Source of the DNA: Acaryochloris marina S15
GTDB lineage: Bacteria > Cyanobacteriota > Cyanobacteriia > Thermosynechococcales > Thermosynechococcaceae
DNA length: 32,000 bases
Direction: 5' to 3'
NCBI RefSeq assembly: GCF_018336915.1
Contig: NZ_CP064923.1
Span: forward strand, 5,100,001 to 5,132,000
Position 1 is the stretch's first letter, and every line of letters starts with the position of its first letter. Position numbers and translations under genes: made by a program. The notes under the pieces were generated by a model. It worked only from the letters and a program-made list of their open reading frames with translations. It was not told the origin of the DNA and searched no databases. Of this stretch, positions 5,481 to 20,334 are shown one piece after another.

Positions 5481-7382
5481 TTAGCTAGCGAGAGACTTAA
5501 CGGTCTTCATAATGCCAGCGGGGTCAATTCCCTGGTGAGGGAATTGCTCCCAAAGACCACCGCAACCTTCTTCATGGGTACCCAAGTAAGCAAACTTAGG
5601 AGATAAACCACGCTCTAGCAACCAAGAACCAAAGCGGCTACCTAGACCAGTCCGACGGTTGAAGGACTCAACCACCACCACAAAAGAGGTGGCTCCAATC
5701 TTTTTCATCATGTCCTCATCCACCACATTGAGGGTGGACTTATTGATTAGACCGACATCAATGCCTTCTTTCTTCAGACGCTCAACAGCATCCAAAGACC
5801 GATAGAGGGCTTCACCAAAGCTGACAATATAACCCGCAGTCCCTTCACGGACCACTTCGTCTTTACCAGGGGTAAAGGTGTAGTTCCCTGCATACAGCTC
5901 ACCACCCTTGGTATCTGTAAGGAGAGGCACCTTAGAGCGAGTGGAGAAGATAAACCGAAGACCAGGATTGTTAAACACCGACTTCACACAGGCCTTCATC
6001 TGGTTAGCATCAGCCGGGAAATAGAGCCGAGTCTCGTAACCATCATCCAAACCATTATCGGCAAACATATTGTTGATACCGAAGTGGCAGGTATTATCCG
6101 CCATGTCGTCAATTCCCGCATGGGAGAAGTGACAGAGCAAGTTGGACTTGTTCAAGCGGGCCATGGTGATTTCAGAGATACACATCTCCAAAAAGGCACT
6201 AAAGGTGGCGAAAATGCCCTGCTTGCCTTTGGCCATCCCAAAACCGGCAGCCGCAGAGAGGTTACCCCGCTCTTGAATACCACCACTGATAAAGATTTCA
6301 GGGTTAGCAGCCCGAATCTTGTGGAGACCACAGGACCCTTCTAGGTCGCTATCTACCACGAGCACCTTAGCCTTGCGGTCGTCTTCGCTCATGCCGCTGA
6401 GGACGTCAACGACGGCATCACCGAAGACGTTACGGTTGGAGTCGTACTTCTCAGAGGCCCCAAGGAAGGTATAGTCCTGACTGGGTTTGACAACGCTCTT
6501 CAGATTGGCAACCGCATCAGAATGACCGCGAGCCTCTAGATACTTGAGGGCGGCATCCACAGAAATCACGTCATGACCGTGGTTAGACCCTTCCAGGCCG
6601 TCAATACCCACACACATAGCCCGCTTGTTGATGACAGCCACGGGACCGGGGGTGTTTATGGCTTCACAAATGCGAGCGTAGAGCCCGTCAACATCTTCGC
6701 CATCGCCTTCTAGAACCTTGAGACCATGACCTTCTAAAGTCTTTTTGACGCTAAAACCAGGCAGATAGTCGGAAGGGCTACCGGCAATAGTGATGTCGTT
6801 ATCATCAATTAGGAGTTTGACATTAATCTGCTGAGCAACGGCTAAACGAGCGGCTTCAGCGTCATTGCCTTCTTGTTGAGATCCGTCTGAACCTAAACAG
6901 AAAGCCGTTTTGCCAGGATTCGCGAGAGCAACACCATTCACATAGGGCCACATATGTCCCAATCGACCCGAGCTGAATTTAACGCCAGGGGTAAGACCCA
7001 GTTCAGGGTGTCCCGGCAAGGTGGAGTTGGCACCCCGATAGTTCATCAACTGCTCAGCAGGCAAGGAGCCTTCTAAAGTAGACATCAAGTATTGCGTAGC
7101 GACTCGGTGTCCAGCTTCGTCAAAAAAGATAGGAACATACTTGTCGGAACTCCCCCGAAAGAGAGCATCCAAAATCATGACTTCGGGGACAGTATCGTAG
7201 GGTCCACCCGTATGTCCGCCCACGCCTCTGGCTGCACCAGTAGCGGTAAAAAATACAATGGCATCACGGCAAAGCTGAATATTCGCTTTAAGAGCATCCC
7301 GTTGCTCTGGGGTGAGTTTGGGATTGCTAGCGTCCAGGGTAAGCGGTTTATAAGCTTTTAAATTAATAGGGAATGTTGACAT
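5481..7382 (-). CDS. Transketolase-family thiamine-diphosphate enzyme (atypical 633-aa paralogue)
   Basis: N-terminal GGHTGGPYD, a variant of the transketolase GHxGG motif. ThDP/Mg motif: GSDGSQQEGNDAEAARLAVAQQINVKLLIDDNDITI. Middle Pyr domain (FGMAKGKQGIFATFSAFLEM) and C-terminal domain are also present. N-terminus and length differ from the canonical ~670-aa TktA. Confidence 0.85.
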   Translation of the reverse strand: MSTFPINLKAYKPLTLDASNPKLTPEQRDALKANIQLCRDAIVFFTATGAARGVGGHTGGPYDTVPEVMILDALFRGSSDKYVPIFFDEAGHRVATQYLMSTLEGSLPAEQLMNYRGANSTLPGHPELGLTPGVKFSSGRLGHMWPYVNGVALANPGKTAFCLGSDGSQQEGNDAEAARLAVAQQINVKLLIDDNDITIAGSPSDYLPGFSVKKTLEGHGLKVLEGDGEDVDGLYARICEAINTPGPVAVINKRAMCVGIDGLEGSNHGHDVISVDAALKYLEARGHSDAVANLKSVVKPSQDYTFLGASEKYDSNRNVFGDAVVDVLSGMSEDDRKAKVLVVDSDLEGSCGLHKIRAANPEIFISGGIQERGNLSAAAGFGMAKGKQGIFATFSAFLEMCISEITMARLNKSNLLCHFSHAGIDDMADNTCHFGINNMFADNGLDDGYETRLYFPADANQMKACVKSVFNNPGLRFIFSTRSKVPLLTDTKGGELYAGNYTFTPGKDEVVREGTAGYIVSFGEALYRSLDAVERLKKEGIDVGLINKSTLNVVDEDMMKKIGATSFVVVVESFNRRTGLGSRFGSWLLERGLSPKFAYLGTHEEGCGGLWEQFPHQGIDPAGIMKTVKSLAS

Positions 7383-16434: not shown

Positions 16435-19400
16435 ATGGGTTCTGAAACTCCTCCCCCTCCACCAGAGCATTTTTTGAAATCTTCAACTGAGTCAATGGCT
16501 CAGTTGCTTCGCTGGATCGCGGAGTTAGTCCGACAGCGCAATTGGTACATGCTGTTGGTTTTAGTAGGAGTAGGGCTAGCACTATTAACTCATTTCGGTC
16601 GAGATCAGCTCAATCAATTCATCAAGCCAGAATATCAAACTGCCTTCTCATTTTTTCTATGGGGTGGGGTGGTGTTGATCATTCTAGTGGCTTTGGGGTT
16701 TGCCCTCAAAACCCTACCTCGAACTCAGCCCCCTAACCTCGAAGATTTAGCAGAGCGCAAAGCGATTAAGGGACTGCGACCCTTTAGCCAAGACGATGCA
16801 GAAATTTTTGCCCGATTGCAGCGAGAACGATTGCTCCAAACTTGTGTAGAAGTGATCACTAGCTCTGACTTCCGATTTGGAATTTTAGTAGGAGAGTCGG
16901 GCTGTGGGAAGACTTCTGTTTTACAAGCTGGAATTTTACCTCAGTTTCTGAGGTCCGAATGTGAGTTCTGCGGTGTATACGTGCGGTTTTCGGACCAAGA
17001 ACCGCTGGCTGCCATTCGGCAGGCATTAGCTGAGCAGCTAGAAATTCCGATGGAGTGGTTGACCACTGAAACGGATGCACATCCTTTTTTGGCGCTCTTA
17101 ACGCAAGCGGTGACTGCTGCGGACAAGCCTGTGGTCCTGTTTTTGGACCAGTTTGAGCAATGGTATGTCCATGCCAAGCAGCCCGAGGATCGTCAGCCGT
17201 TTTTGCAAGGGTTAATGGCATGGTACAAACAGCCCACTCCGCCAGTGAAGATTCTGGTCTCGATCCGCTCAGATTTGTTTTTCCATATTGTAGAAATCCA
17301 GAAGGCACTCCACTTTGACCTCGGTCCCCAGGATGTGTTTCAGTTGGCCAAGTTTACGCCTGCTGAAGCGACCCAGGTATTGGCGGTGATTGCTCACACA
17401 GAAAATCTCCGGTTTGAAGAATCTTTTGTCATGGAGCTGGCGGAGCAAGAGTTGGCAGGTCGGGAAGATGGGCTGATTTCTCCGGTGGATGTGCAGATTT
17501 TGGCCTGGATGATTGAACGCCAAAATGCCTCGGAGTTGCGGGCCTTTAATCGCCAAGCTTTCCAGAAGTTTGGGGGTGTGGAAGGGCTGTTGATGCGGTT
17601 CTTGGATAAAGCCTTGATGGCTCGGGTCTCGGAGGGGCAGCGACAGGCTGCCTTAAAAGTATTGTTGGCCCTAACGGATTTGGAACGGCAGGTACGGGCA
17701 GGGGTTTTAACGGTCAGTGAATTACAGCAAAAATTAACGGGATCTCTCTCTTCTCAAGAGGTGCGCGAGGCGGTGAGATGGTTGGAGCGGGGAGATGTAC
17801 GGCTGATTACCCCGATCAACCGACAGCAGCAAGAAGTGGGATATGAACTGGCCCATGAACGCTTAATTCCATCCTTACTCAAACAGGCGGGTCGAGAGTT
17901 ATCGGCGGCAGATCAGGCGAATCAGCTTTTGGATCGGCGGGTGAATGAGTGGTTGGGGAATAACCGCAGTGGGCGTTATCTTTTTGGTCCACGGGAGTTG
18001 TGGTCGATTAAACAGCAAAAGCCCTATTTAACCTGGGGACCCAAACGGCCTCAAAAAGAAAAACTGTTGGCTTTAAGCTGGCGGCGAGTGCAAGGATTCA
18101 CGGGGGCATTGATGGCAGTTTGTTTAGGGATTTCTGTGTTTTTAGGTTGGCTATGGTATATGCCGGCAGGACAAATTCAGCAAGTGCGGTGGGCCTTGGT
18201 GAATCCAATGGGTGGCCCCTTAGATAGAGTTAGCGATGAAGATGCAGTCAGTGCAGCGATTGCTTTTGCCAAAGATGGCAAGAAACAAAAAGCAATGGAT
18301 ATGGTGACCCAATATGTTGATCGTCCAGGGAGTCAGGCTCAATTTTTTAGTCAATTTACATCTGTGTTGATTCATGAGACTGACCATCAATCCATCAAAA
18401 AAGATTTAAACCTAATGCAAGTAAGGGCCAAAAAAATTGATGGCCCAAGGTACAAATCTTCTGCCCTGAGAGCGATTGCAGCCGCCTATGGTCAAATTAA
18501 TGACCCCAAACTCGCTCATGAAGTCTTGAAAAATGCCCTAGCCGTCGCCGAAAAATTTGATGACCCATATTCCAAATCTTCTGCCCTGAGAGCGATTGCA
18601 GCCGCCTATGGTCAAATCAATGACCCCAAACTCGCCCAGGAAGGATTGAAAAATGCCCTAGCCGTCGCCGAAAAATTTGATGACCCAAGTTCCAAATCCG
18701 ATGCCCTGAGAGCGATTGCAGCCGCCTATGGTCAAATCAATGACCCCAAACTCGCCCAGGAAGGATTGAAAAATGCCCTAGCCGTTGCCGAAAAAATCGA
18801 TGACCCAAGGTACAAATCCTCTGGCCTGAGAGCGATTGCAGCCGCCTATGGTCAAATCAATGACCCCAAACTCGCCCATGAAGGATTGAAAAATGCCCTA
18901 ACTGTCGCCGAAAAAATTGATGACCCAAGGTACAAATCCTCTGCCCTGAGAGCGATTGCAGCCGCCTATGGTCAAATCAATGACCCCAAACTCGCCCATG
19001 AAGTCTTGAAAAATGCCCTAACTGTCGCCGAAAAATTTGATGACCCACGTGACAAATCCAATGCCCTGAGTGCGATTGCAGCCGCCTATGGTCAAATCAA
19101 TGACCCCAAACTCGCCCATGAAGTCTTGAAAAATGCCCTAACTGTCGCCGAAAAATTTGATGACCCACGTGACAAATCCAATGCCCTGAGTGCGATTGCA
19201 GCCGCCTATGGTCAAATCAATGACCCCAAACTCGCCCATGAAGTCTTGAAAAATGCCCTAACTGTCGCCGAAAAAATTGATGAGCCAACTGACAAATTCT
19301 ATGCCCTGAGAACGATTGCAGCCGTTTATGGTCAAGTCAATGACCCCAAACTCGCCCATGAAGTCTTGAAAAATGCCCTAACCGTCGCCGAAAAAATTGA

Positions 19401-20334
19401 TGACCCACGTGACAAATCCAATGCCCTGAGTGCGATTGCAGCCGCCTATGGTCAAGTCAATGACCCCAAACTCGCCCATGAAGTCTTGAAAAATGCCCTA
19501 ACTGTCGTCGAAAAAATTGATAACCCAAGTTCCAAATCCAATGCCCTGAGAGCGATTGCAGACGCCTATGGTCAAATTAATGACCCCAAACTCGCCCATG
19601 AAGGATTGAAAAATGCCCTAACCGTCGCCGAAAAAATTGATGACCCACGTGACAAATCCAATACCCTGAGAGCGATTGCAGATGCCTATGGTCAAATTAA
19701 TGACCCCAAACTCGCCCAGGAAGGATTAAAGAAGACTCTAAAAGCTGCAGAAGCAGCTAATGCCGAAAGTGTTATGGAAGCAATTTCTGTAAAATATGCC
19801 TATCTAAGCGATTGGGGACAGTCATTAAAGGCCCTGAGATATTGCCCAGAATCTTGGAAAGTGAAAGCCCAGATCAAACTTTTGACCCTTTGGGCTGAGA
19901 AAAAAAATCCTAGATTGATCAATGGCGCAGTGATTGTAGAGCAGCCTGAAGCATCTGAAGAACGGGGTAAATATACCTTCAAGGCCAATCTTTATGGTCC
20001 TACAGAAGGTTGTAATCAGTATGTGGATTGGTGGGAAATCCTAAGTGAAGATCAGGAGCTATTAGATCGCCCCCATTTTGACATCAGTCATGATGATCAA
20101 CAGCCTTTCTCTAGTACGAGTAAGCCCATCCAAGCGTCAGACAATCAAACACTTCTAATTCGGGCTCACCTCCATCTTGAAAACAAAGATAAAAGTGGCT
20201 ATGAGGCCAGACAGGCTTGGAAAGGAACGATCAAAGATGGCTTCGAAATGATTCGCCTACCTGAGAGATTTGCCACCAATCTTGCCAAAGCGGACCCACA
20301 ACCCAAACCTTGCCAAGATAAGTCCCTAACTTAA
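16435..20334 (+). CDS. Membrane-anchored STAND-type P-loop NTPase (NLR-like) with 11 tandem 40-aa helical repeats and an orphan C-terminal domain
   Basis: 1299-aa ORF. Two hydrophobic helices at aa ~37-54 and ~69-91. Pre-P-loop motif KGLRPFSQDDAEIFARLQRE. Walker A GESGCGKTS at 16891-16917. Walker B VVLFLDQFE at 17131-17157. A helical/wHTH-like region ends YELAHERLIP...RRVNEWL. A third hydrophobic helix, GFTGALMAVCLGISVFLGWLWYM, is at aa ~554-576. The repeat array is at 18439-19758. The ~190-aa C-terminal region is unrecognised. The motif order resembles the 'novel STAND' NTPases often fused to WD40/TPR arrays in cyanobacteria and actinobacteria (from memory, not searched). Confidence 0.85.
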   Translation: MGSETPPPPPEHFLKSSTESMAQLLRWIAELVRQRNWYMLLVLVGVGLALLTHFGRDQLNQFIKPEYQTAFSFFLWGGVVLIILVALGFALKTLPRTQPPNLEDLAERKAIKGLRPFSQDDAEIFARLQRERLLQTCVEVITSSDFRFGILVGESGCGKTSVLQAGILPQFLRSECEFCGVYVRFSDQEPLAAIRQALAEQLEIPMEWLTTETDAHPFLALLTQAVTAADKPVVLFLDQFEQWYVHAKQPEDRQPFLQGLMAWYKQPTPPVKILVSIRSDLFFHIVEIQKALHFDLGPQDVFQLAKFTPAEATQVLAVIAHTENLRFEESFVMELAEQELAGREDGLISPVDVQILAWMIERQNASELRAFNRQAFQKFGGVEGLLMRFLDKALMARVSEGQRQAALKVLLALTDLERQVRAGVLTVSELQQKLTGSLSSQEVREAVRWLERGDVRLITPINRQQQEVGYELAHERLIPSLLKQAGRELSAADQANQLLDRRVNEWLGNNRSGRYLFGPRELWSIKQQKPYLTWGPKRPQKEKLLALSWRRVQGFTGALMAVCLGISVFLGWLWYMPAGQIQQVRWALVNPMGGPLDRVSDEDAVSAAIAFAKDGKKQKAMDMVTQYVDRPGSQAQFFSQFTSVLIHETDHQSIKKDLNLMQVRAKKIDGPRYKSSALRAIAAAYGQINDPKLAHEVLKNALAVAEKFDDPYSKSSALRAIAAAYGQINDPKLAQEGLKNALAVAEKFDDPSSKSDALRAIAAAYGQINDPKLAQEGLKNALAVAEKIDDPRYKSSGLRAIAAAYGQINDPKLAHEGLKNALTVAEKIDDPRYKSSALRAIAAAYGQINDPKLAHEVLKNALTVAEKFDDPRDKSNALSAIAAAYGQINDPKLAHEVLKNALTVAEKFDDPRDKSNALSAIAAAYGQINDPKLAHEVLKNALTVAEKIDEPTDKFYALRTIAAVYGQVNDPKLAHEVLKNALTVAEKIDDPRDKSNALSAIAAAYGQVNDPKLAHEVLKNALTVVEKIDNPSSKSNALRAIADAYGQINDPKLAHEGLKNALTVAEKIDDPRDKSNTLRAIADAYGQINDPKLAQEGLKKTLKAAEAANAESVMEAISVKYAYLSDWGQSLKALRYCPESWKVKAQIKLLTLWAEKKNPRLINGAVIVEQPEASEERGKYTFKANLYGPTEGCNQYVDWWEILSEDQELLDRPHFDISHDDQQPFSSTSKPIQASDNQTLLIRAHLHLENKDKSGYEARQAWKGTIKDGFEMIRLPERFATNLAKADPQPKPCQDKSLT
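18439..19758 (+). repeat. 11 in-frame tandem repeats of 120 bp (40 aa) inside the STAND gene
   Basis: Repeat units start at 18439, 18559, 18679, 18799, 18919, 19039, 19159, 19279, 19399, 19519 and 19639. Consensus: DDPRxKSxALRAIAAAYGQINDPKLAHEVLKNALTVAEKI. Lines 19021-19140 and 19141-19260 are letter-for-letter identical. More degenerate units flank the array on both sides. Confidence 0.97.

Follow-up and report, generated by a model that had tools for sequence, protein, structure and literature searches.

A homogenised TPR array with clustered variable positions in an nSTAND1-clade NTPase of Acaryochloris marina, a candidate ligand-sensing solenoid

Why should a cyanobacterial gene carry eleven nearly identical 120-bp units that differ mainly at a few codons, and what might such an array do? 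We analysed a window of 32,000 nucleotides from Acaryochloris marina S15, in which the array lies inside a long open reading frame (Table 1). The encoded protein is a STAND NTPase of the nSTAND1 clade with 40-residue TPR repeats, and thus has an NLR-like architecture. Its NTPase module matches the Pfam profile with an E-value of 6.4e-39 (135.1 bits, cutoff 27.1; 374 of 379 profile positions covered), and the repeats match the TPR_12 profile with 125 bits. The NCBI protein P0001, annotated as an 'AAA family ATPase / nSTAND1 domain-containing NTPase' of Acaryochloris marina, is 100% identical. Its deposited start lies 20 codons 3' of the ORF start, and the longer N-terminus is kept in orthologues. 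An amphipathic helix (aa ~12-36) precedes TM1. The sequence of the capping helices is kept across the family, with the consensus ANA..L..I...YA....W..AL.AL..C. The C-terminal beta-sandwich has no Pfam or NCBIfam match and gave generic sandwich matches alone in a Foldseek search of the PDB (E at least 2.8e-3). Its invariant residues among homologues are W/E in DWWE, R, Y, Q, G, F and R, and two cysteines (aa 1193 and aa 1293) are nearly invariant.

Table 1. Features of the gene in window coordinates. H numbers are AF2 model residues (model residue + 585 = protein residue).
Feature	Position	Strand	Residues (aa)	Remark
Whole gene	16435..20334	+	1299 aa	ORF; nSTAND1 NTPase, three predicted TM helices, TPR array, C-terminal beta-sandwich
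N-terminal membrane hairpin	16543..16707	+	TM1 37-55, TM2 73-91	Kyte-Doolittle peaks 1.82, 2.66
nSTAND1 STAND NTPase module	16768..17967	+	112-511	Pfam PF20703
Walker A GESGCGKTS	16891-16917	+		Motif in NTPase module
Walker B-like motif VVLFLDQFE	includes 17137-17157	+		NTPase module
TM3, between NTPase and solenoid	18097..18153	+	555-573	Hydropathy peak 2.01
Two degenerate TPR-like hairpins, solenoid N-terminal cap	18235..18438	+	~601-668	AF2 helices H16-28, H32-42, H46-60, H66-80
TPR array, 11 x 120 bp (40 aa)	18439..19758	+	669-1108	Hypervariable codons 2, 4, 5, 8, 11, 12
Solenoid C-terminal capping helices	19759..19905	+	1109-1157	AF2 helices H526-572
C-terminal beta-sandwich, Ig-like	19948..20259	+	~1172-1275	AF2 model, 8 strands

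Tandem Repeats Finder reported a repeat at 18427-19723 with a period of 120, 10.8 copies, 93% matches and 0% indels. Read in the frame of the ORF from 18439, it comprises 11 units of 40 codons each, as an earlier note on this DNA had described. The mean pairwise identity of units 1-10 is 91.1% for DNA (range 85.8-99.2%) and 83.6% for protein, and the 3' third of unit 11 is degenerate at its junction with the C-terminal cap. Units 7 and 9 are not adjacent and are 2 nt apart; the most divergent unit (8) sits between them. Within the window array, variation is concentrated at codons 2, 4, 5, 8, 11 and 12. Half of the 30 variable columns (15, with 9 expected; p=0.006) fall in codons 1-12, and 10 codons have at least two variable positions (p=0.01). 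The codon variants listed in the earlier note are all correct, and four of the eight codons that it singled out (4, 5, 8 and 11) stand across the family. It missed codon 2 (G/D/E/N, entropy 1.28), and its other four, the helix-B codons 27, 29, 35 and 40, turned out to be dimorphic markers of unit subtypes that are not hypervariable family-wide. Single-unit changes at codons 7, 9, 12, 15, 16, 20 and 37 are likewise absent from the note. The charged helix-B residues K24, E28, K31, N32, E38 and K39 are invariant in units 1-10, and therefore the variability does not simply track charged, presumably exposed positions. The consensus base is A in 8 of the 30 variable columns and in 39 of all 120 columns, which amounts to no adenine bias.

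The AF2 model (pLDDT 87.6, pTM 0.82) consists of regular hairpins, with helix A at positions 3-19 and helix B at positions 23-38 of the unit, in agreement with the helix-turn-helix-turn unit proposed earlier. The nearest solved folds in Foldseek are the 40-residue TPRs of LGN/Pins (E ~1e-8). On helix A, the variable residues lie about 140 degrees off the hydrophobic moment (variability moment at 137-165 degrees in four arrays), and helix B of the same four arrays gave no comparable signal. The hypervariable residues thus probably form a helix-A stripe opposite the hydrophobic core, and not within it, a mapping based on the periodicity of the helix and the hydrophobic register of TPRs rather than on measured coordinates. 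This agrees with the earlier placement of positions 4, 5 and 8 on one face of the solenoid. For the concave-face assignment, we take L10/I13/A14/Y17 to be W4/L7/G8/Y11 of the TPR register. The concave groove of TPR solenoids is lined by the solvent-facing side of helix A. In LGN/Pins, the A helices line the inner groove along which the ligand peptides extend.

The same positions vary in other cyanobacteria. Identity at a lag of 40 residues is at least 0.7 in 45 of 120 homologues. Across 16 arrays of other cyanobacteria with internally conserved units, mean within-array entropy is highest at positions 8 (1.84), 4 (1.50) and 5 (1.22), followed by positions 2 (1.11), 11 (1.06) and 12 (0.90), and all other positions have values of at most 0.57. 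A rank test that left out the window array gave p=4e-5 for the variable positions.

Acaryochloris orthologues are found in synteny, flanked by GidB and a 2OG-oxygenase on one side and by a photolyase and OEP on the other. They carry 1, 13 or 14 units, whose sequences differ from those of the window array. The units cluster by genome in a nearest-neighbour analysis, and 41 of 91 informative site pairs, all within 120 bp, fail the four-gamete test, so that the units are mosaic. Because the unit counts vary, the units cluster by genome and the four-gamete test fails, these patterns indicate that unequal recombination or gene conversion, as supposed in the earlier note, probably operates in the array. 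The chimeric single unit of the Moss Beach orthologue and the 2-nt difference between the non-adjacent units 7 and 9 likewise speak for recombination. Exchange with paralogues was not detected for this single-copy, syntenic locus, and a scan of species-representative genomes with the DNA pattern of the unit found just one other occurrence, at the orthologous locus.

Substitutions in the array are neither evenly spread nor mostly synonymous. By minimal-event counts, the window array has 2.17 amino-acid-changing events per codon at the six hypervariable codons versus 0.29 elsewhere, and 0.17 versus 0.18 silent events. Nei-Gojobori dN/dS for units 1-10, a rough measure when applied to recombining paralogous units, is ~5.3 at codons 4, 5 and 8, 2.95 over codons 1-12, 0.36 over codons 13-40 and 0.85, i.e. 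not above 1, over the full unit. When four arrays are pooled, the ratio of amino-acid-changing to silent events (N:S) is 46:6 at the hypervariable codons versus 64:35 at the remaining codons (odds ratio 4.2, p=0.002), and the former exceeds the neutral ratio of 3.25:1 (p=0.024). In the window array alone, the excess of 13:1 over neutral is not significant (p=0.12). There is thus modest support for dN/dS above 1, rather than relaxed constraint, at the hypervariable codons. Purifying selection on the NTPase flank is strong (omega 0.07-0.12), and therefore the gene is functional.

We favour, with a probability of roughly 0.6, the reading that the array is a shuffling ligand-sensing solenoid of an nSTAND1-clade NLR-like NTPase and that the helix-A stripe is a combinatorial binding surface. 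Neutral repeat turnover is an unlikely, though not negligible, alternative: slippage or unequal crossing-over alone would keep the units of a recent tandem expansion alike, variation would be left at the least constrained exposed codons with no role in adaptation or recognition, and the solenoid might serve as a spacer or scaffold that is free to vary in length. The full-unit dN/dS and the non-significant excess in the window array are consistent with it. So are the loosely constrained array size, with a single unit in one strain and old, divergent arrays in some orthologues (NIES-2412, P0004, P0006), and the within-array pS of 0.10, which is close to the divergence of the window strain from Moss Beach (0.07-0.13). 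However, an identical set of six positions tops the variability in 16 independently homogenised arrays, and amino-acid changes are enriched 4-7 times at these positions while silent changes are not. The pooled N:S ratio above neutral, the invariance of probably exposed charged residues in helix B and the purifying selection on the NTPase flank of a functional gene also argue against neutral turnover.

The presence of a TM helix between the NTPase and the array was unexpected. Exactly one such helix is found in 104 of 112 homologues, and two hydropathy peaks precede Walker A in 76 of the 112. Around TM3, K+R residues average 7.4 upstream and 2.5 downstream, with the upstream count higher in 102 of 104. 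TM3 is conserved and has this strong positive-inside bias, which predicts a periplasmic or lumenal location for the array and the Ig-like domain at the C-terminus. The TM1/TM2 hairpin with its amphipathic helix is a candidate output or effector module. STAND autoinhibition usually involves direct contact between sensor and NOD module, and a TM helix between the two fits this scheme poorly. The neighbouring genes are housekeeping genes and not a defence island.

The predicted topology also bears on whether the array is instead a variable envelope target, whose variation would serve escape from phage receptor-binding proteins, bacteriocins or grazers, i.e. antigenic or receptor variation like that of surface proteins with repeats, and not new specificities. 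Its predicted location outside the cytoplasm would suit such a target, as would the in-frame copy-number variation between strains, which is typical of variable surface proteins. We consider this improbable, since its fusion to a STAND NTPase switch in the cytoplasm implies signal transduction, and since the array would lie poorly accessible under the outer membrane and varies in the helix-A groove stripe but not over its whole exposed surface.

The one-unit Moss Beach gene carries two frameshifts, and its unit joins a match to unit 2 (nt 1-87) to one to the terminal unit 11 (nt 88-120), exactly the chimera expected from a first-to-last collapse; this allele could be an assembly collapse. Mis-assembly or repeat collapse as the source of the near-identical units or copy-number differences, with which the end of the IP29b contig 61 bp past the gene and the truncated C-terminal domain there would also agree, is very improbable, because the window lies on a contig of 5.88 Mb and the gene of Moss Beach on a record of 5.70 Mb, the array is in frame and free of indels with all units distinct bar near-duplicates, similar arrays occur in those 45 homologues from many independent assemblies, and substitutions at codons 8 and 11 are private to the Moss Beach unit.

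The array belongs with the highly internally conserved repeats of NLR-like proteins, which are known from fungi and have been briefly noted for bacteria. The fungal repeats are highly conserved internally, are polymorphic in number and show positive selection on the concave face of the TPR, and repeat shuffling has been proposed as both cause and consequence of their conservation (PMC4986451). Examples are the Podospora HET-E/NWD family and NB-ARC/TPR genes such as Pa_2_10340 (Paoletti 2007, as cited in Dyrka et al. 2014, PMC4986451). The likeness to this fungal signature, already drawn in the earlier note, is borne out: in both, repeats that build a superstructure follow a STAND NTPase, the units exceed 80-90% identity, strains differ in repeat number, and each unit has a few hypervariable positions on the binding face of the TPR helices. 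On the other hand, the Acaryochloris host is a bacterium, the NTPase is nSTAND1 and not NACHT or NB-ARC, the units have 40 and not 42 residues, and the locus is single-copy and syntenic without detected paralogue exchange. The protein also has three predicted TM helices, with the sensor probably outside the cytoplasm, and no HET, HeLo or PNP-type effector domain.

Like their fungal counterparts, bacterial NLRs contain WD and TPR repeats whose units are 80-90% identical, and it has been suggested that they may diversify rapidly (Dyrka et al. 2020, bioRxiv 10.1101/2020.01.06.895854). The Acaryochloris gene is an example of this class, described there from multicellular bacteria. That study defines NLRs by NB-ARC or NACHT, whereas the present protein is nSTAND1, and does not analyse variable positions, copy-number polymorphism or topology. 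The Acaryochloris gene has no Bell domain or amyloid-motif partner among its neighbouring genes. In the antiviral STAND NTPases of the Avs families, the sensor binds its target protein by shape complementarity, leading to oligomerisation, and the order of N-terminal output (a candidate in Acaryochloris), STAND NTPase and C-terminal TPR-like sensor is shared (PMC13581612). However, Avs sensors are irregular, non-repetitive and cytoplasmic, whereas this one is a regular, homogenised 40-residue array after a TM helix. In PADLOC, the protein matched a generic TPR model alone and no defence STAND, and it has no recognised enzymatic effector.

Diversity-generating retroelement (DGR) systems of multicellular bacteria diversify C-type-lectin sensors on STAND NTPases (nSTAND1/NACHT) (Doré et al., bioRxiv 10.1101/2023.09.22.558884 / PMC10907252). 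They share the concept of a hypervariable sensor, in some cases the nSTAND1 clade, and in some cases TM regions with a variable domain predicted to be periplasmic, as in the Acaryochloris protein. In contrast, the Acaryochloris gene has no reverse transcriptase or template repeat in its neighbourhood and no adenine bias, and it is a TPR array rather than a CLec fold that varies, through repeat recombination and point substitutions. The TPRs of LGN/Pins (PDB 3sf4, 3ro2, 4a1s) likewise have a 40-residue helix-A/helix-B unit, but these are eukaryotic scaffolding proteins with divergent repeats and without an NTPase, at 15-16% identity to the Acaryochloris protein.

If the array is a shuffling sensor, residues 2, 4, 5, 8, 11 and 12 of the helix-A stripes would jointly make the combinatorial binding surface. 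The 120-bp units share ~91% identity and each spans a whole number of codons, so that unequal crossing-over in register, slippage and gene conversion among them could add, delete, reorder and mosaic units without loss of frame. Such recombination would keep the scaffold homogeneous (concerted evolution), and selection would favour, or at least tolerate, amino-acid change at the contact positions. Ligand binding by the helix-A stripe may drive NTP-dependent oligomerisation, with the N-terminal two-helix membrane hairpin as the putative output, for example by membrane perturbation. Because of TM3, sensing would take place outside the cytoplasm. We infer that the array serves as a recognition surface, and strains of Acaryochloris would consequently bear different sensor surfaces.

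We found a single strong tandem array in the window, with a period of 120, 10.8 copies, 93% matches and 0 indels (Tandem Repeats Finder), inside one long open reading frame. The register proposed in the earlier note is in frame, giving 11 units of 40 codons. Among units 1-10, mean identity is 91.1% for DNA (85.8-99.2%) and 83.6% for protein (70-97.5%), and the last third of unit 11 is divergent, merging into the C-terminal cap. No overlapping ORF of at least 80 aa lies on the opposite strand of the array, and Rfam and tRNA scans detected no RNA genes in the window. Ahead of the repeats, the protein matches the nSTAND1 family (Pfam PF20703) with 135.1 bits against a cutoff of 27.1, over profile positions 3-376 of 379. 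The Walker A and Walker B-like motifs, the latter a hydrophobic strand with an acidic residue, are intact and nearly invariant among homologues. Kaur et al. 2021 (PMC8195603) described nSTAND1 as a new STAND clade, one of predicted conflict systems. The TPR_12 family (PF13424) matches the repeats in seven stretches (124.7 bits, cutoff 30.1), and the unit length is exactly 40 residues, not the canonical 34, as in the longer TPR_12/LGN-type variants. By its predicted domains the gene product is NLR-like in architecture, and the analogy with fungal NLRs drawn in the earlier note thus extends from the repeat pattern to the domain architecture (nSTAND1 plus TPR). The N-terminal and C-terminal regions have no Pfam match, a Bcl-2 hit at E=0.047 being non-significant. 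An identical protein is deposited for Acaryochloris marina as 'AAA family ATPase / nSTAND1 domain-containing NTPase'. This NCBI entry (P0001, 1279 aa) begins 20 codons 3' of the first ATG; orthologues keep the longer N-terminus (MGSE-P..PP..FL), which makes the upstream ATG probably the true start.

Coordinates of the study gene, its orthologues and the neighbourhoods of distant homologues (window positions unless a locus is named)
Feature	Nucleotides	Residues	Detail
Study gene	16435-20334 (+)	1299 aa	
Stretch absent from P0001	16435-16494		20 codons
TM-like segment 1 (TM1)		37-55	hydropathy
TM-like segment 2 (TM2)		73-91	hydropathy
nSTAND1 match		112-511	PF20703
Walker A		153-161	GESGCGKTS
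Walker B-like motif		includes 235-241	VVLFLDQFE
Block of raised synonymous identity with IP29b		~542-1168	array included
Upstream flank of array in block	18058-18438	~542-668	compared with IP29b locus L002
TM-like segment 3 (TM3)	18097-18153	555-573	hydropathy; between NTPase and solenoid
AlphaFold2 model		586-1299	
Tandem Repeats Finder call	18427-19723		period 120
Repeat array	18439-19758	669-1108	11 units
Downstream flank of array in block	19759-19938	1109-1168	compared with IP29b locus L002
Ig-like beta-sandwich	19948-20259		invariant DWWE motif
Cysteine within sandwich		1193	nearly invariant
Cysteine just past sandwich end		1293	nearly invariant
Moss Beach frameshifts	L001 (CP071717.1) 5826-6100		two, at homopolymer runs near 5' end
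IP29b sandwich truncation	L002 9700-10012		after '...DDQQPFS'
HEARO RNA near distant homologue	L005 358-586		Rfam RF02033, 128 bits
ORF-free stretch 5' of homologue	L005 2906-4620		tandem repeats
ORF-free stretch 5' of homologue	L006 2577-4640		tandem repeats

We then investigated how the units differ. Codons 1-12 contain half of all 30 variable columns, nine being expected there (p=0.006), and 10 codons carry at least two variable positions (p=0.01). The earlier note had listed variants at eight codons; every listed codon variant is correct, but codon 2 (G/D/E/N) and several single-unit changes had been missed. By the Nei-Gojobori method (units 1-10), dN/dS is about 5.3 at codons 4, 5 and 8, 2.95 over codons 1-12 and 0.36 over codons 13-40, with 0.85 for the whole unit. 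Minimal-event counts give 2.17 amino-acid-changing events per codon at codons 2, 4, 5, 8, 11 and 12 versus 0.29 elsewhere, with silent events equally frequent in both classes (0.17 and 0.18 per codon). Only amino-acid changes are thus in excess, and the pattern does not reflect a local mutation hotspot.

The AlphaFold2 model is confident (pLDDT 87.6, pTM 0.82) and consists of two degenerate capping hairpins, 11 regular hairpins, capping helices and an eight-stranded beta-sandwich. In each unit, helix A spans positions 3-19 and helix B positions 23-38 (16-17 residues each). The top fold matches among solved structures are the 40-residue TPRs of LGN/Pins, and a PDB sequence search with the array returned designed helical repeats and TPR-like proteins only, which did not help to map individual residues. 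Placing the variable residues by helical periodicity, not by model coordinates, we found an angle of 137-165 degrees between the variability moment and the hydrophobic moment of helix A in four arrays (permutation p 0.0002-0.054); helix B shows no directional variability signal in these four arrays. L10, I13, A14 and Y17 are invariant, and we take them to be the TPR packing pattern W4/L7/G8/Y11. Unit positions 8, 11, 12 and 15 would then be TPR positions 2, 5, 6 and 9, presumably the classical groove-facing sites, with positions 4 and 5 on the same face of helix A one turn earlier. Units 1-10 all share the charged helix-B residues K24, E28, K31, N32, E38 and K39. Their charge suggests that these residues are exposed, and if so, exposure by itself would fail to explain the variability.

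The same pattern recurs across the family. Lag-40 identity reaches at least 0.7 in 45 of the best 120 homologues, nearly all of which are cyanobacterial by source name, and of the 74 homologues whose lag identity is 0.5 or more, 72 have a period of 40. Within-array entropy was computed for 16 arrays, each with six or more in-register units and a mean identity of at least 70%. It peaks at positions 8 (1.84), 4 (1.50), 5 (1.22), 2 (1.11), 11 (1.06) and 12 (0.90) and is at most 0.57 at all remaining positions; a rank test of position variability with the window array left out gives p=4e-5. The helix-B sites 27, 29, 35 and 40, counted earlier among the variable codons, are not hypervariable family-wide; in the window array they are dimorphic and mark unit subtypes. 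Two distant homologues, which share 43-46% protein identity with the study gene, have arrays with 87-90% internal DNA identity. In four arrays, pN at positions 4, 5, 8 and 11 is 0.24-0.40 versus 0.05-0.10 elsewhere, and the pooled N:S counts are 46:6 at hypervariable codons and 64:35 at the others (odds ratio 4.2, p=0.002).

We propose that an NLR-like switch uses the array as its sensor. The helix-A stripe would form a combinatorial binding groove, which recombination among the near-identical 120-bp units could reshuffle and resize in frame. The scaffold would be held by selection, with change at the contact residues favoured, or at least tolerated. Once a ligand is bound, the protein would be free to undergo NTP-dependent oligomerisation. 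As output module, the only candidate is a conserved N-terminal amphipathic helix with a TM hairpin, and it is pure speculation on our part that clustered N-terminal hairpins might perturb the membrane. The main rival is neutral turnover of units with constraint relaxed at the groove positions; the pooled 46:6 ratio departs from the neutral N:S ratio with p=0.024.

The predicted membrane topology was not anticipated. Of the three TM-like segments, TM3 is matched by exactly one helix at its place in 104 of 112 homologues. In these 104, the 25 residues upstream of the helix contain 7.4 K+R versus 2.5 downstream, and the upstream count is higher in 102 of them. Under the positive-inside rule, the N-terminus and NTPase are predicted to be cytoplasmic, and the TPR array and beta-sandwich periplasmic or lumenal. 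Modelled alone, the beta-sandwich has a pLDDT of 87.6; it matches no Pfam or NCBIfam family, and a fold search returned generic Ig-like sandwiches only (E 2.8e-3 or worse), with no significant solved fold. The sandwich is conserved, and its two associated cysteines fit an oxidising compartment, short of proof. Such an extracytoplasmic sensor would be unusual among NLR-like proteins. There is a precedent in the predicted periplasmic variable sensor on TM-containing STAND proteins that are targets of diversity-generating retroelements (DGRs) (bioRxiv 10.1101/2023.09.22.558884). For membrane-spanning STAND receptors with repeat sensors, a targeted search of the literature gave nothing relevant. 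A further reading, tentative and in our judgement less likely than not, is a membrane-spanning NLR-like receptor with a cytoplasmic STAND switch, a single TM and a hypervariable, shuffled TPR plus Ig-like exterior, sensing envelope-level non-self. Its exterior would face the periplasm or thylakoid lumen, its candidate ligands would be phage ejection or tail proteins, toxins or neighbour-derived ligands, and activation would have to be transmitted across the membrane instead of following from the release of a direct sensor-NOD contact. If true, the protein would be functionally the bacterial equivalent of a pattern-recognition receptor with a repeat ectodomain, not of an intracellular NLR. As a rival to the sensor role, the variation might be escape variation of an envelope target, which we consider less likely than neutral turnover.

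We then investigated the orthologues. The gene is syntenic in three other Acaryochloris genomes, with GidB and a 2OG-Fe(II) oxygenase on one side and photolyase and OEP on the other.

Arrays at the syntenic Acaryochloris locus
Genome	Units	State of array	Flank dS
Window strain	11	homogenised, 91% DNA identity	reference
Moss Beach	1	single unit	0.07-0.14 vs window
IP29b MAG	13	homogenised, 90% DNA identity	~0.7 vs window
NIES-2412	14	mostly divergent	~0.8 vs window

In a nearest-neighbour analysis, units of the window strain and IP29b fall with those of their own genome, with a single exception. All four gametes occur, inside the 120 bp, at 41 of the 91 informative site pairs of the window array, and the most divergent unit (8) interrupts the near-identical units 6, 7 and 9. 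Together with the differing copy number, these sequence patterns indicate concerted evolution, in which units are still being duplicated and lost and gene conversion has its breakpoints within units. Exchange may be RecA-dependent or may occur by slippage. The single Moss Beach unit matches unit 2 at nt 1-87 and the terminal unit 11 at nt 88-120; its codons 8 and 11 carry changes found in it alone. This junction would result from an in-register deletion between the first units and the last, and equally from assembly collapse. The Moss Beach gene is called from an internal start (821 aa) because of two frameshifts, which reflect either a pseudogene or long-read homopolymer error. In IP29b, the beta-sandwich is truncated and the contig ends 61 bp past the stop codon; the truncation could be an insertion or a contig-end artefact. 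A DNA-pattern scan for the 120-bp unit in species-representative genomes gave a sole match, to the IP29b MAG at the orthologous locus. An assembly artefact is likewise a less likely rival than neutral turnover. DGR mutagenesis was excluded, there being no reverse transcriptase among the window ORFs or syntenic annotations, no template repeat and no adenine bias (consensus A at 8/30 variable columns versus 39/120 overall).

The window and IP29b genes share a block of raised synonymous identity that includes the array. Synonymous-codon identity is 0.84 in the array flanks versus 0.63 over aa 1-541 (Fisher p=1.8e-6), and only 2 of ~28 synonymous sites separate the two unit consensus sequences (pS 0.07 versus 0.46 in the flanks). 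We rejected selection on the DNA sequence as the cause of the low unit pS and preferred a recombination tract, since synonymous identity is also elevated in the non-repeat codons directly beside the array. Window and NIES-2412 show no such block. This comparison suggests that a recombination tract carried the sensor segment between lineages.

The neighbourhoods of the distant homologues (loci L004-L006) contain transposases and toxin-antitoxin genes (BrnT, HepT/MNT, PIN, Uma2), in contrast to the housekeeping genes around the Acaryochloris locus. Directly 5' of the homologous genes at L005 and L006 lie ORF-free stretches of ~1.7-2 kb. Non-coding tandem repeats make up these stretches, the unit sizes being ~290 nt and ~80 nt, and the GCGATCGC palindrome occurs within them. 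The window has no comparable upstream repeats, its intergenic region being 266 nt. A HEARO RNA is also found at L005.

Conserved repeats with a few hypervariable positions are a hallmark of rapidly diversifying fungal NLR receptors. For fungi, Dyrka et al. 2014 (PMC4986451) described repeats that are strongly conserved within a protein, polymorphic in number and positively selected on the concave face of the TPR, and defined highly internally conserved (HIC) repeats by >85% identity over at least 100 aa. On these measures, the study array has a lag-40 identity of 0.92 in its best 160-aa stretch and an all-pairs protein mean of 83.6%, above the threshold locally and just below it as a mean. Like the fungal NWD/HET-E HIC repeats, it is fused C-terminally to a STAND NTPase, and its unit number varies at one locus (11, 1, 13 and 14 in four syntenic Acaryochloris genomes). 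Bacterial NLRs with WD and TPR repeats of 80-90% unit identity have been reported, and a similar diversification was suggested for them (Dyrka et al. 2020); in the searchable literature we found only one short passage on bacterial HIC-type repeats. The study locus differs from known HIC NLRs in its nSTAND1 clade, 40-residue unit and predicted transmembrane topology, and in being one syntenic locus amid housekeeping genes. In PADLOC, only the generic TPR model PDLC01169 matches (1.2e-13), with no NTPase model and no catalogued defence STAND (Avs, bNACHT), and NCBIfam gives no family match. Matches to the TPR-containing models FimS, NsdA and AfsR are spurious and repeat-driven, all far below their cutoffs except NsdA (77.4 versus 75 bits).

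The locus is a clean and tractable bacterial example, apparently single-copy and syntenic, with alleles ranging from one unit through homogenised 11- and 13-unit arrays to divergent ones such as the 14-unit array of NIES-2412. If confirmed, it would make experiments on how repeat shuffling yields new specificities possible in a prokaryote, and would offer protein engineers a natural design of scaffold plus variable positions. The stripe recurring in at least 16 cyanobacterial arrays is the probable ligand-contact code of the 40-residue TPR, and the predicted topology suggests that bacterial NLR-like sensing may reach the cell envelope.
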